A stretch of 64,000 bases of DNA. Origin: Candidatus Yanofskybacteria bacterium (GTDB lineage Bacteria > Patescibacteriota > Minisyncoccia > 2-02-FULL-40-12 > IGHO2-01-FULL-4-A). Within the stretch, counting starts at the first letter, position 1. Each line of letters starts with the position of its first letter. Shown here piece by piece: positions 9,480 to 11,911 of the stretch. Where the stretch lies: positions 64,115 through 128,114 of the forward strand of contig JACOZV010000002.1 in assembly GCA_016181175.1 (NCBI GenBank), written 5' to 3'. The position numbers and the translations under genes are program-made. The notes beneath the pieces were generated by a model. It searched no databases. It was given only the letters and a program-made list of their open reading frames with translations, and was not told the origin of the DNA.

Positions 9480-9552
9480 GGGGGATCTAGGGGATTCGAA
9501 CCCCTGACCCTTCTGCCACAGAGAAGTGTGTTGCCATTACACCAAGATCCCC
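9480..9552 (-). tRNA. tRNA-His (GUG) with encoded G-1
   Basis: Minus-strand sequence GGGGATCTTGGTGTAATGGCAACACACTTCTCTGTGGCAGAAGGGTCAGGGGTTCGAATCCCCTAGATCCCC. Anticodon loop CTGTGGC, T-arm AGGGG-TTCGAAT-CCCCT. The 8-bp acceptor includes G-1:C73, which is typical of tRNA-His. Confidence 0.85.
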
Positions 9553-10031
9553 ATGAATTTCTTATGTTCGACTTTGTCGTGGTGGATAAGATAGTGACAA
9601 TTATGGCAAAGCCAAACCAAGTTTTCTATTTTATTGTTCATCCTATTCTCGTCTAAATGATGCACTGCTAAAATTCTCTTATCTTTTAACTTACAAAATT
9701 TACACGCCTGCTTGGCATGACTTCTTAAGAGAATATGTCTGTATCTATGCAGGCCGCCTTTCCAAAATGGATGTTTTTCTCCAGAGAAAAAAACATTTCT
9801 CCATATAGTCTGACATCTCTTTGTACAGAAAAATTTACCACTTTTCGAATGCCTTAATTCTTTAGGCATTTTCCATGCTAATTTATTGCATGTGGAACAA
9901 TTTATAAATTTACCGCGACGTTGTCCTATCGTTTGGCATTTACGCGAACAGTATTTCCCGCCGCCAATTTTTAAGTGATATGGTTTGATATAGGATTTAT
10001 TCTTACAAATGTGGCATGTGATGGTGGGCAT
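9537..10031 (-). CDS. HNH endonuclease with N-terminal zinc-ribbon repeats
   Basis: C-terminus AVHHLDENRMNNKIENLVWLCHNCHYLIHHDK is a canonical HNH motif. The N-terminus has CxxC...CxxC pairs. The 3' end overlaps tRNA-His by about 16 nt. Confidence 0.75.
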   Translation of the reverse strand: MPTITCHICKNKSYIKPYHLKIGGGKYCSRKCQTIGQRRGKFINCSTCNKLAWKMPKELRHSKSGKFFCTKRCQTIWRNVFFSGEKHPFWKGGLHRYRHILLRSHAKQACKFCKLKDKRILAVHHLDENRMNNKIENLVWLCHNCHYLIHHDKVEHKKFMGILV

Positions 10032-10049
10032 TAACTAAATTATATCTGT

Positions 10050-10127
10050 TTCTGCCTATTGTTGCAAGACTGCTCTGTGGATTAAATCCTCTCTCTACCA
10101 TTGAGCTACGGCCACCATACGGCAAAA
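10050..10127 (-). pseudogene. tRNA-like fragment (acceptor/D-arm signature only)
   Basis: Minus strand reads GGTGGCCGTAGCTCAATGGTAGAG..., a typical tRNA 5' half. No consistent anticodon or T-arm could be folded. It is adjacent to the HNH gene. Confidence 0.35.
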
Positions 10128-10188
10128 TTATAACAAGTTTTTAATTTACTTTCAAGCTGAAATGCGATATAATTAGCACTAATAAACA

Positions 10189-10260
10189 CCGCCCGTAGTT
10201 CAACGGACAGAACGAGGGACTTCTAATCCCTAAATCGAGGTTCGATTCCTCGCGGGCGGA
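10189..10260 (+). tRNA. tRNA-Arg (UCU)
   Basis: CCGCCCG-TA-GTTCAACGGACAGAAC-G-AGGGA-CTTCTAA-TCCCT-AAATC-GAGGTTCGATTCCTCG-CGGGCGG-A. The 7-bp acceptor pairs. Anticodon TCT. T-loop TTCGATT. Confidence 0.85.
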
Positions 10261-10263
10261 CAT

Positions 10264-10476
10264 ATGAAAATTTGGAAATGGCTTTTATATATTACTAATA
10301 ACGAGGAAAAATCACGGCACGAAGAGCTTTTTGATGTTGCCTTTTTTAGTCTCAATACCATTGCGGTTGTTTTTGGAATTGTTATGTTTATAATCCACAA
10401 CGAACCACAGTGGATACCGATTCTTGTTATTGAGTATACTTGGGCATTAGATAGTATGAGACACAATAGGCCATAA
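10264..10476 (+). CDS. possible small membrane protein (70 aa)
   Basis: ORF starts 4 nt after tRNA-Arg. One hydrophobic helix IAVVFGIVMFII. No other support. Confidence 0.2.
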   Translation: MKIWKWLLYITNNEEKSRHEELFDVAFFSLNTIAVVFGIVMFIIHNEPQWIPILVIEYTWALDSMRHNRP

Positions 10477-10516
10477 ATATTTAGAAAAGGGTATTCTACA
10501 AATTTATAAATTTATA

Positions 10517-10587
10517 CGGGCCGTGGTGTAACGGTAGCACGAGACGTTTGGGACGTTTTAGCCCGAGTTCGAATCTCGGCGGCCCGA
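10517..10587 (+). tRNA. tRNA-Pro (UGG)
   Basis: CGGGCCG-TG-GTGTAACGGTAGCAC-G-AGACG-TTTGGGA-CGTTT-TAGC-CCGAG-TTCGAAT-CTCGG-CGGCCCG-A. Anticodon TGG. Confidence 0.85.
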
Positions 10588-10598
10588 CAGTTAAAATC

Positions 10599-10640
10599 GC
10601 GGGTATCGTATAGTGGCAGTACGGCAGTTTTCCATATGTT
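10599..10640 (+). pseudogene. tRNA-Gly 5' fragment (truncated copy)
   Basis: GCGGGTATCGTATAGTGGCAGTAC... resembles the 5' half of the adjacent intact tRNA-Gly (GCGGGTATAGTATAGCAGCAGTATGAC) but has no complementary anticodon or T-arm or acceptor 3' strand. Confidence 0.45.
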
Positions 10641-10662
10641 TTGGTAATTAATTTGCTATATA

Positions 10663-10700
10663 AAACAAAAGGCCTCCGGGGTATGGAGACCTTTTGTTTT
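10663..10700. terminator. bidirectional intrinsic terminator
   Basis: aaaacaaaaggcctccggggtatggagaccttttgtttt is a GC stem with mirror-image A-run and T-run. Confidence 0.7.
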
Positions 10701-10705
10701 ATATG

Positions 10706-10776
10706 AGCGGGTAACGGGATTTGCACCCGTGTCTACTCCTTGGAAGGGAGTCATACTGCTGCTATACTATACCCGC
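10706..10776 (-). tRNA. tRNA-Gly (UCC)
   Basis: Minus strand GCGGGTA-TA-GTATAGCAGCAGTATGAC-TCC-CTTCCAA-GGAGT-AGAC-ACGGG-TGCAAAT-CCCGT-TACCCGC-T. Anticodon TCC. Acceptor stem pairs 7/7. Confidence 0.85.
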
Positions 10777-10780
10777 AATT

Positions 10781-11533
10781 TTATTGCGATAACACACCAT
10801 ATATCCAACCCTTTATTCTCCTAAATAGTTTTACCCCAAAAGCAATATTTCCATTTGCCTTTATAGTAACATGAGCAGTACCAAAAGGCAGCTTTTTTCT
10901 TTTATAGATTTTTTTATTTTCTCTGCGATCTATTTGTACTTTTTGGAAGTTTTTATCAGACAAACCAGTTTCTTTTTTCCAGAATTTGATTGATTCATTA
11001 ATGTTGTTATCAGGGTATAAATGAAGTCTTATGGCAAAGTTATCATCTGGCAAGCCGATTATTTCTTTAAACCATCTTATGGAGAGCCTTATTACTGCTG
11101 GATCAGCATTGATTACTCGAATAATATCATTATTTTTAGTACCCTCTCCTATATAAATGCCAAGTCCTAAAAGCCACAAGTCTCGGTTGCTAAGTTTTCC
11201 GATTTCTTTAGCGCCAGCTTCAAGTAATTCCTTAGTTTCTTGTACTTTACGATTGTGGCTTTTTTCGGCTGATTTCATGGGCCCGCGGTATATTCTATCT
11301 AAAACTTCTATGTTAGGAGTAAACTTACGATCTCTAAACCAGTCACTTAGAGTACTTTTTGATATTCCTATACTTGCCGAGATCATGTTATAGGAGTATC
11401 CCCTATCTCTTAGTTTTGTTGCCTGATTTTTAAGTTTATTAATTCTGGTCATAGCCTCATTATACCAGACTATAGTCACGGGTTCAATAAAATCGGAATT
11501 AAAAAGTGTGGCAGTTGTAGAATTTATCTGCAT
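10781..11533 (-). CDS. LAGLIDADG-like homing endonuclease homologue with N-terminal HTH domain
   Basis: Central motif LWLLGLGIYIGEGTK fits the LAGLIDADG consensus (hydrophobic-G-hydrophobic-hydrophobic-acidic-G-acidic-G). N-terminus RDRGYSYNMISASIGISKSTLSDWFR is helix-turn-helix-like. It lies in the tRNA cluster. Confidence 0.5.
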   Translation of the reverse strand: MQINSTTATLFNSDFIEPVTIVWYNEAMTRINKLKNQATKLRDRGYSYNMISASIGISKSTLSDWFRDRKFTPNIEVLDRIYRGPMKSAEKSHNRKVQETKELLEAGAKEIGKLSNRDLWLLGLGIYIGEGTKNNDIIRVINADPAVIRLSIRWFKEIIGLPDDNFAIRLHLYPDNNINESIKFWKKETGLSDKNFQKVQIDRRENKKIYKRKKLPFGTAHVTIKANGNIAFGVKLFRRIKGWIYGVLSQ

Positions 11534-11696
11534 CTAATTTTCCCTTCAATCAAGCAGTTTATTCTCATTGCCCCCTACCCGCTCCCCCAGTCCAACTGGG
11601 ACCCCCTCACCCACAGTTGGAATGGGGAGTCGAGTTTGACTCGCCTCCCCAACTATATAATTATATTAAGAATAAAAAGTCTGACTTTTTATTCTT

Positions 11697-11885
11697 ATGA
11701 ATAAGTATTACGTATACACATTGCTCTCACTTAAAGATAGGCGATTTTATGTTGGTTTCACCGCCAACCTAAAAAACCGTCTTCAGCAACACGCTCACCA
11801 AGATGCCAAAGCCAGAGAAGTGTTTCTCAAAAGTGGTTTTGGCAGAAACCAAATGAAGCAGGCATTAAAACAAACACTTTTGTAG
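11697..11885 (+). CDS. GIY-YIG nuclease domain protein (62 aa)
   Basis: MNKYYVYTLLSLKDRRFYVGFTANLKNRLQQH is a textbook GIY-YIG core (YVY...YVG...N...R...H). Confidence 0.7.
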   Translation: MNKYYVYTLLSLKDRRFYVGFTANLKNRLQQHAHQDAKAREVFLKSGFGRNQMKQALKQTLL

Positions 11886-11911
11886 CCTATTTCCTATACT
11901 CGCTCCACAAT

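Follow-up and report, generated by a model that had tools for sequence, protein, structure and literature searches.

Two nuclease-tRNA cassettes in a tRNA gene cluster of a Candidatus Yanofskybacteria genome and their possible origin by homing

How does a short cluster of tRNA genes come to hold pieces of tRNA genes next to genes of three nuclease types? The question is raised by a stretch of 64,000 nucleotides (nt) from a genome of Candidatus Yanofskybacteria (contig JACOZV010000002.1, positions 64,115 to 128,114), here called the window, and within it by positions 9480-11900. A first-pass annotation of this DNA had listed tRNA-His, tRNA-Arg, tRNA-Pro and tRNA-Gly, and all four were found by both ARAGORN and Rfam. 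It had further described an HNH endonuclease gene, a gene for a protein with helix-turn-helix (HTH) and LAGLIDADG-like parts, a GIY-YIG gene and two tRNA fragments, and had read the whole as a graveyard of homing endonuclease genes or as a degraded integrative element.

We consider that the island is probably an ordinary tRNA cluster (His / Arg, Pro, Gly) which was remodelled by two independent, self-contained cassettes. As the best explanation, and again a probable one, these are homing endonuclease cassettes, with a nuclease that would cut a resident tRNA gene and a tRNA of their own that would take its place. Comparisons with tRNA genes of related genomes show two insertions into resident tRNA genes, each with a complete replacement tRNA, and nuclease-driven homing would be their cause. 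Both cassettes share one plan, consisting of an own promoter, a nuclease open reading frame (ORF) and a complete tRNA gene (Table 1). The HNH and tRNA-His cassette (~10082 to 9478, minus strand) occupies the site of the resident tRNA-His, of which the old promoter and the first 24 bases remain upstream. The LAGLIDADG-like and tRNA-Gly cassette (~11492 to 10658, minus strand) lies inverted within a resident tRNA-Gly of the plus strand, the 5' half and 3' end of which flank it. Both nuclease-tRNA pairs recur in many other Patescibacteria together with old halves broken at the anticodon loop, and both nuclease genes were absent from the closest available relatives (L089, L086, L132 and L163). A fixed site relative to the tRNA combined with absence from the closest relatives is the pattern expected of site-specific mobile genes.

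Table 1. Features of the tRNA cluster in window coordinates ('old' and 'new' denote the proposed resident and cassette-borne tRNA genes)
Feature	Position	Strand	Basis and remarks
New tRNA-His(GUG), cassette-borne	9478-9551 (9552 with encoded G-1)	-	ARAGORN and Rfam (62 bits); encodes CCA
HNH endonuclease ORF, 164 amino acids (aa)	9537-10031	-	two CxxC...CSxxC zinc fingers and HNH domain; TAA stop in tRNA-His D loop
HNH cassette promoter	10039-10067	-	TTGCAA, 17 nt, TATAAT, 7 nt to ATG
Conserved left-end motif ATCCACAGAGCAG	10070-10082	-	reverse complement of tRNA-His anticodon loop and stem
Old tRNA-His remnant, G-1 to position 23 (acceptor 5' strand and D arm)	10093-10116	-	match to L089 tRNA-His
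Old tRNA-His promoter, still in place	10127-10155	-	TTGAAA, 17 nt, TGtTATAAT; 11/12 matches; strong
tRNA-Arg(UCU)	10189-10261	+	ARAGORN and Rfam; promoter 10145-10173
tRNA-Pro(UGG)	10517-10588	+	ARAGORN and Rfam
Old tRNA-Gly(UCC) 5' half	10599-10634	+	ends one base past anticodon (...TTTTCCA)
20-bp hairpin, bidirectional terminator at cassette 3' end	10658-10704	.	inverted repeat
New tRNA-Gly(UCC), cassette-borne	10705-10776	-	ARAGORN and Rfam; 4 nt after LAGLIDADG-like ORF stop codon
HTH and LAGLIDADG-like ORF, 223 aa from M28	10781-11452	-	longest ORF to 11533 (250 aa)
LAGLIDADG-like cassette promoter	11459-11487	-	TTGAAC, 17 nt, TGgTATAAT, 6 nt to ATG
Old tRNA-Gly 3' end, 15-mer CCCCCTACCCGCTCC	11571-11585	+	T-stem 3' strand, acceptor 3' strand, discriminator, CC
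Spacer tRNA-Gly to GIY-YIG: GC-rich hairpins, TATATAAT box, 15-bp hairpin	11586-11696	+	conserved; 22-nt deletion in window
GIY-YIG gene remnant, 62 aa	11697-11885	+	Pfam, first half of domain only

At the first site, the 24-base fragment is by its matches the 5' part of a former resident tRNA-His. Together with three leader bases (10093-10119) it showed 96% identity (26/27) to the leader and 5' part of tRNA-His in L089, a relative with an alanyl-tRNA synthetase (AlaRS) gene 81% identical at the DNA level, where tRNA-Pro is directly followed by tRNA-His and no HNH gene is present. To the new tRNA-His of the window the same fragment was ~54% identical. The new gene itself shared 69% identity with tRNA-His of relatives, tRNA-Pro of the window reaching 88-97%, and compares as a foreign allele different from that of the relatives. 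Besides L089, tRNA-His without an HNH gene was found in L086 and L132, and these loci represent empty sites. The tRNA 5'-half-like fragment that had been placed at 10050-10127 is thus tRNA-derived, with a tRNA-like part that is shorter than described, covers just 10093-10116 on the minus strand and belongs to tRNA-His. A decayed tRNA-Arg(UCU) was considered for it, relatives having tRNA-Arg there, and was rejected as it matches 5' parts of tRNA-His including the L089 leader. At the other end of the cassette, the reported overlap of the HNH gene with tRNA-His amounts to 16 nt: the stop codon lies in the D loop and the final codons M-G-I-L-V-stop coincide with the tRNA from G-1 to the D loop.

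At the second site, between the two old tRNA-Gly pieces and inverted relative to them, we found a promoter, the LAGLIDADG-like ORF, the new tRNA-Gly and the terminator hairpin. The best panel matches of the old 5' half were L095 and L113, with ~32/36 bases identical, and with the new tRNA-Gly it forms a 43-nt inverted repeat. This piece, earlier seen as a truncated tRNA-Gly copy at 10599-10640, is indeed present and ends at 10634, just past the anticodon. For the 15-mer CCCCCTACCCGCTCC all 15 bases matched tRNA-Gly 3' ends. The fragments of tRNA-His and tRNA-Gly both scored far above chance. L163 carries an intact tRNA-Gly, the GC-rich spacer and an 85-aa GIY-YIG gene, has no LAGLIDADG-like gene, and aligned to the window from exactly TACCCGCTCC onwards (E 3e-66). 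In L049, also without a LAGLIDADG-like gene, tRNA-Pro and tRNA-Gly are adjacent. Similarity to other LAGLIDADG-like loci began at 11470-11493 (~11490 in six of the seven loci retaining upstream sequence) and mostly ended at ~10705, and these positions delimit the unit. We also considered whether 'TTTCC' is a target-site duplication present at both tRNA-Gly junctions; the 3' side is too decayed to decide. Remnants of both resident genes beside the cassettes bear out the earlier idea that genes of the homing endonuclease type had invaded tRNA genes.

Relatives of the HNH protein were collected by a scan of one genome per species that returned 255, and the best 80 loci, from many Patescibacteria lineages, were examined. 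Among these an HNH homologue lay directly upstream of tRNA-His in 77. At 73 loci ARAGORN called a same-strand tRNA-His(GUG) at a distance of -11 to +64 nt from where the HNH protein match ends; at three further loci (L020, L045 and L072) tRNA-His was present with unusual T arms and missed by ARAGORN. The contig end of L003 cuts within tRNA-His, and the contig of L041 stops before the tRNA position. As in the window, the ORF ended within tRNA-His in 34 of the 73 loci, which explains the conserved HNH C-terminus KFMxxLV. Sixteen loci (L021, L028, L032, L035, L038, L039, L051, L053, L062, L070-L072, L075-L077 and L082) encoded two HNH paralogues in tandem before one tRNA-His, both of full length and with 36-50% identity to the query, and L033 adds a partial second copy. 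This suggests repeated insertion at one site.

Some features of individual loci were recorded alongside. In L014 (3837-4486) and L019 (1314-1958) the HNH gene was found ~90 nt downstream of an intact tRNA-His with a ATCCACAA motif in between. Unusual T arms such as CGGAGCATAACCG or CGGGAGCGTTACCCG occurred in tRNA-His of L014, L020, L028, L043, L045, L060, L062, L070, L072 and L082. The T loop TGCAAAT, with G replacing the near-universal U55, was shared by the cassette tRNA-Gly of the window and many cassette tRNA-His genes, at loci including L008, L011, L022, L026 and L046.

Remnants of an older tRNA-His were also found outside the window. A tRNA-His 5' half was located at -95 to -50 before the HNH start in 21 of 79 loci, and control regions never scored so high. 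Most of these halves ended at positions 35-38, just past the anticodon, two at 23-25, and two extended to ~45. They shared 65% identity with the tRNA-His of their own locus versus 92% with intact tRNA-His genes elsewhere. In five loci the old 3' part was kept downstream of the new tRNA. L027 and L080 kept both old halves with matching acceptor strands, and the halves of L027, joined with six filler bases, were recognized as tRNA-His by ARAGORN. A tRNA-His of the GGTGCCC type had given way to a GGAGG type in L057, and a GGAGG type to a GGTGCCC type in L059, indicating that tRNA-His replacement occurred repeatedly.

For the LAGLIDADG-like protein a metagenome scan gave at least 455 relatives, of which the best 80 loci were examined. 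A tRNA-Gly(UCC) followed directly 3' of the homologue, on the same strand and within ~40 nt of the match end, in 78 of them. The gap from the true stop codon to tRNA-Gly ranged from -15 to +31 nt and was most commonly 3-5 nt. Old tRNA-Gly halves, direct or inverted, were found beside the gene in ~20 loci. In L165-L168 a paralogue (hhalign probability 99.8%) precedes tRNA-Gly(GCC). The universal conservation of three nuclease genes at this locus, which the first-pass annotation had set against its own view, was therefore seen in one respect, the HNH and LAGLIDADG-like genes being nearly always in the same place by the tRNA, and in another not, since both are absent from the closest relatives. 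A fixed site by a conserved gene and empty sites in relatives are features of free-standing homing endonucleases.

Linkage of this kind might alternatively indicate domesticated host factors. The HNH and the HTH and LAGLIDADG-like proteins would then be regulators or maturation factors of tRNA-His and tRNA-Gly, co-transcribed with them and vertically inherited, and the remnants would stem from unrelated duplications or rearrangements. The very tight and phylum-wide linkage, protein identities of 50-60%, the ORF-tRNA overlap conserved in 34 of 73 loci, the HTH domain and the NCBI name 'transcriptional regulator' all agree with such a role. We still regard it as unlikely, because the closest relatives lack these genes and have a normal tRNA-His and tRNA-Gly, and because the old halves represent another type of allele and share the anticodon loop as their break point. 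In L027, L080 and the window the unit is moreover bordered by both halves, tandem HNH paralogues exist in some loci, and the nearest named relatives of the HNH protein are phage HNH endonucleases, with similarity over the full length.

The nuclease identity of the two proteins is supported by HNH residues and fold, by the phage HNH similarity, and by a LAGLIDADG motif with a match to I-DmoI. The HNH protein, a member of a conserved family of 164 aa, matched Pfam HNH_3 just under the curated cut-off (E 9e-5, 22.5 versus 24.8 bits) and, over nearly its full length, PHROG 1271 'HNH endonuclease' (E 2e-13). Foldseek related it to the HNH domains of IscB, Gme and McrA with probabilities of 0.99-1.0. 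Residues C110, C113, H124, H125, N137, C142, C145, H146 and H150 were invariant among 27 family sequences, so that the catalytic His, Asn, His motif and the CxxC...CxxC zinc site of HNH enzymes are both present. In the second protein, described before as HTH and LAGLIDADG-like, Pfam detected an XRE-type HTH (HTH_3, E 9.5e-6). The LAGLIDADG helix, which in these enzymes ends in a catalytic acidic residue, is represented by the motif LLGLGIYIGEGTK (invariant pattern GxGxYxGEGxK; G102, E103, G104 and K106 invariant in the family), and the family profile matched the second LAGLIDADG motif of I-DmoI with E 0.003. No Pfam LAGLIDADG model was found at E<=0.1. Enzymes of this type have an alpha-beta-beta-alpha-beta-beta-alpha core fold; the structural model of the window protein had a mean pLDDT of 79, with helix and strand order alternating after the motif helix. 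Since the family typically measures 221 aa, the true start of the window ORF is probably M28 at 11452. Apparent conservation of 'VWYD' at the N-terminus is due to the promoter that is conserved there.

Both cassettes carry a consensus-like promoter with the -10 element ending 6-7 nt before the ATG. This geometry recurs in other loci and was seen in 38 of 45 scorable HNH loci. The conserved spacing suggests leaderless mRNAs that run on into the tRNA, and the HNH and LAGLIDADG-like mRNAs are therefore probably leaderless. Upstream of the HNH promoter, CCACAR was found at -62 to -36 in 32 of 76 loci versus ~0.4 expected by chance, and ATCCACAR or its TTCAGAAAC variant, the reverse complement of the tRNA-His anticodon loop, in 48 of the 76. 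In many loci this left-end motif and the old anticodon loop together make up an inverted repeat. A selected RNA hairpin of the two was considered: pairing reached 61% in register versus 35-44% when slid, and covariation was marginal (24/500 shuffles reach it). The motif could be a terminator, a target-mimicking operator or a repair scar. By analogy, the ATCCACAG element could be a candidate operator or target mimic for the HNH protein; an operator that mimics the target has reportedly been described for I-TevI. A local inversion of 23 nt, which we had considered for 'CCACAGAGC' after the D arm, was dropped once ATCCACAR proved general at the cassette left end.

The GIY-YIG gene has a different history. 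It encodes 62 aa as reported, and Pfam recognized the first half of the domain (E 3.6e-8, profile positions 1-39 of 78) with the N-terminal motifs. Compared to 85-aa relatives, a 69-nt (23-aa) in-frame deletion has taken out the conserved Arg...Glu region (RRP...YE), and the catalytic Arg and Glu of GIY-YIG enzymes are thus missing from the window protein. Among the matches listed there were 119 homologues, all of 78-108 aa, and the protein of the window alone has 62 aa. In the other loci examined the gene followed a same-strand tRNA at a distance of 94-190 nt, i.e. tRNA-Gly (UCC or GCC), tRNA-Lys or tRNA-Val. By these comparisons it is an inactivated deletion derivative of a third tRNA-associated family. 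Its position after the old tRNA-Gly indicates that it predates the LAGLIDADG-like insertion and is now decaying.

The spacer before this gene was more conserved than the ORF. Window and L163 were nearly identical there apart from the 22-nt deletion, with 81% over the whole alignment. Its hairpins showed some compensatory changes, e.g. CCGAGT/ACTCGG versus CCCAGT/ACTGGG (window; L163 3870-4000; L096, L164, L165), and the 15-bp hairpin ends at the GIY-YIG start codon. No Rfam family matched 11586-11696; a small RNA is one possibility for the spacer, and a recognition element belonging to the GIY-YIG unit is another.

The decayed GIY-YIG gene is also an argument for a graveyard of homing endonuclease genes or a degraded integrative element, left by repeated invasion and repair, in which no unit functions now. 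The tRNA remnants agree with this, as do 255 extra nt with a His-anticodon-like palindrome between tRNA-Arg and tRNA-Pro. Decay is however restricted to GIY-YIG: the HNH and LAGLIDADG-like ORFs are full length with all family-invariant residues kept, both cassettes have strong promoters of their own, and no tRNA-His or tRNA-Gly other than those linked to the two nucleases was seen in the window. Against an integrative element, no recombinase domain, by which an integrase-type element would be recognized, was found in the ORFs of 9300-13200. The insertions of 0.6 and 0.9 kb are filled by a nuclease ORF and a tRNA and are too small to have contained an integrase, and the remnants include 5' halves, unlike the 3' att-type repeats that integrases leave. 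The two proposals of the first-pass annotation therefore do not fit, although its idea of invaded tRNA genes is in part right, and we rate such an origin as even less likely than domestication.

That an assembler joined reads of different strains at repeated tRNA sequences is highly improbable. Two short Logan contigs do break within this stretch, at window positions 10605 (L001) and 10754 (L002), which would speak for such an artefact. L001, an independent short-read assembly, nevertheless equals window 13700-10605 at 100% identity and contains the GIY-YIG and LAGLIDADG-like genes, the new tRNA-Gly with the hairpin, and the 5' half of the old tRNA-Gly, confirming the junction at the tRNA-Gly fragment. 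The same architectures were also seen in dozens of unrelated assemblies. Public records assign the exact 250-aa (LAGLIDADG-like) and 62-aa (GIY-YIG) proteins to a genome of Candidatus Yanofskybacteria.

Hardly credible, finally, is that the fragments are parts of functional split, permuted or intron-containing tRNAs, e.g. with a group I intron harbouring the HNH ORF, or that 10050-10127 is a non-canonical tRNA as had been offered: breaks at the anticodon loop do fall at the classical intron position, but ARAGORN added no call with introns of up to 1200 nt, with relaxed thresholds or in mitochondrial mode, neither it nor Rfam at E<10 recognized a tRNA at 10050-10127, no intron-containing tRNA, group I intron, ribozyme or other RNA family was detected by Rfam (E<=10) or ARAGORN intron mode, the downstream tRNAs are complete by themselves, and the fragment acceptor strands do not pair with them (old GGTGGCC versus new ...AGATCCCC). 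All four alternatives, that is domesticated factors, a pure graveyard, an assembly artefact and odd tRNAs, fit the data less well than insertion of cassettes.

According to the cassette explanation, the predicted nucleases would cut a cassette-free tRNA-His or tRNA-Gly at or near the anticodon loop, and repair of the break would copy the cassette into the cut gene. The old tRNA halves broken at the anticodon loop and the foreign tRNA alleles would be indirect signs of such cleavage. Conserved tRNA sequence might serve both as target and as short homology arms in distant hosts. Loss of an essential resident tRNA would be tolerated because the cassette carries a whole working tRNA, a design that would amount to a natural 'cleave and rescue'. 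The nuclease gene would be hard to lose or silence without the tRNA because the new tRNA uses the cassette promoter, and the HNH ORF in addition overlaps the tRNA 5' end.

We tentatively extend this to the view, possible but short of probable, that Patescibacteria harbour natural 'cleave and rescue' drives on essential tRNA genes, in which a site-specific nuclease would break a tRNA-His or tRNA-Gly that exists as a single resident copy, destroying it at the anticodon loop, and would install its own allele under the nuclease promoter. As the end of the HNH ORF is the 5' end of the tRNA, processing by RNase P would remove the stop codon of the ORF. The host would have no way to switch off or remove the nuclease while keeping the tRNA, and horizontal transfer would spread tRNA alleles through the phylum. 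The conserved copy of the anticodon loop that lies inverted before the HNH promoter could then act as a target-mimic operator.

Several points weigh against homing cassettes. Cutting of DNA by the HNH and LAGLIDADG-like proteins, and the site of the cut, are predictions, and for the latter protein Foldseek gave no hit at E<=0.001 against PDB and BFVD, so that the LAGLIDADG fold is unconfirmed by structure search. The HNH junction of the window is atypical in that the old tRNA-His breaks off at the D arm. Remnants were seen in only about a quarter of the loci, and the others could be old vertical arrangements. In L014 and L019, alone of the 80 loci, the HNH gene is placed 3' of an intact tRNA-His and has no tRNA of its own. 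The new tRNAs share the anticodon loop of the old ones, which leaves unexplained how the cassette copy escapes cleavage, and replacement in opposite directions, as in L057 and L059, speaks against a single fixed 'resistant' allele. A look-up of the exact HNH protein in public assemblies returned no record, and the HNH part of the window, including its junction, is for this reason without independent assembly coverage. The copy count of tRNA-His and tRNA-Gly refers to one 64-kb window, and a second copy might exist elsewhere in the genome.

Two neighbouring features were noted in the same region. The gap between tRNA-Arg and tRNA-Pro measures 2-11 nt in relatives L086 and L092, and the extra 255 nt of the window (10262-10516, plus strand, orf70) contain a small membrane-like ORF and the palindrome ATCCACAACGAACCACAGTGGAT at 10393-10415. 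This palindrome is His-anticodon-like and resembles the left-end motif of the HNH cassette, and by this likeness 10262-10516 may be the scar of an earlier cassette. On the other side of the cluster, AlaRS (7594-9309, minus strand) has just 571 aa, and Pfam detected the catalytic and second-additional domains alone.

With the cassette explanation a patch of tRNA fragments becomes a probable history of two insertions and one decayed gene, and two widespread cassette types are exposed. In bacteria with minimal genomes each tRNA is usually present as a single copy. If the nucleases act as proposed, the cassettes would represent compact natural selfish elements secured by the capture of an essential gene, and a route for horizontal replacement of tRNA genes in such bacteria. 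They would also provide nucleases of small size (164 and 223 aa) whose natural targets are long and conserved. As to annotation, genes of these genomes that are named 'HTH transcriptional regulator' or 'hypothetical protein' and precede tRNA-Gly or tRNA-His are probably mobile nucleases, and adjacent tRNA half-genes would be their scars.

We searched the literature for these cassettes and found no description. By analogy the closest studied case is SegB of phage T4, a free-standing GIY-YIG homing endonuclease encoded in the T4 tRNA gene cluster, which has a motif of the tRNA T loop as its recognition site, promotes the inheritance of its gene together with neighbouring tRNA genes, and erases tRNA markers of the recipient (PMC2330249). 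A nuclease gene among tRNA genes, a conserved tRNA motif as target and co-inherited tRNAs are what the window cassettes may have in common with SegB. They differ in that the host is a cellular genome of the Patescibacteria and not a phage, that the nucleases appear to be of HNH and LAGLIDADG-like type, and that each is paired with one tRNA inside the resident copy at the anticodon loop, where halves are left. In cyanobacteria, HNH homing endonuclease genes are likewise conserved upstream of tRNA genes and were proposed to spread long tRNA arrays horizontally (PMC8421152). In those genomes as many as 43 tRNAs form an array, the ORF does not overlap a tRNA and no resident tRNA is broken up, whereas here one nuclease accompanies one tRNA.

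Islands and prophages that depend on an integrase also target tRNA genes, restore function with element-borne tRNA sequence and have ends marked by partial copies. They use a tyrosine integrase, rebuild just the 3' part of the gene and leave, at a distance of many kilobases, a 3' direct repeat; the window cassettes have no integrase, measure 0.6-0.9 kb, bring a whole new tRNA and leave 5' halves in either orientation. Group I introns with homing endonuclease ORFs occupy the anticodon loops of bacterial tRNA genes, e.g. cyanobacterial tRNA-fMet and tRNA-Leu. The insertion point and the endonuclease ORF are alike, but the window has no ribozyme, and it is a duplicate tRNA and not splicing that would restore function. 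In fungal mitochondria, as at atp6 of Allomyces, mobile endonuclease ORFs come with a new end for the gene that they enter, and gene drives of the 'cleave and rescue' type have been made synthetically. With these the cassettes share a disrupted essential gene, an own functional replacement and a displaced native piece that is left as a pseudogene; the likeness is one of logic only, as a whole tRNA on a bacterial chromosome is concerned here. By the comparisons made here, the cassettes are set apart from SegB and the cyanobacterial HNH genes by the one-to-one pairing of nuclease and tRNA, insertion inside the resident tRNA, the overlap of ORF and tRNA, and their spread over the cellular genomes of one phylum.

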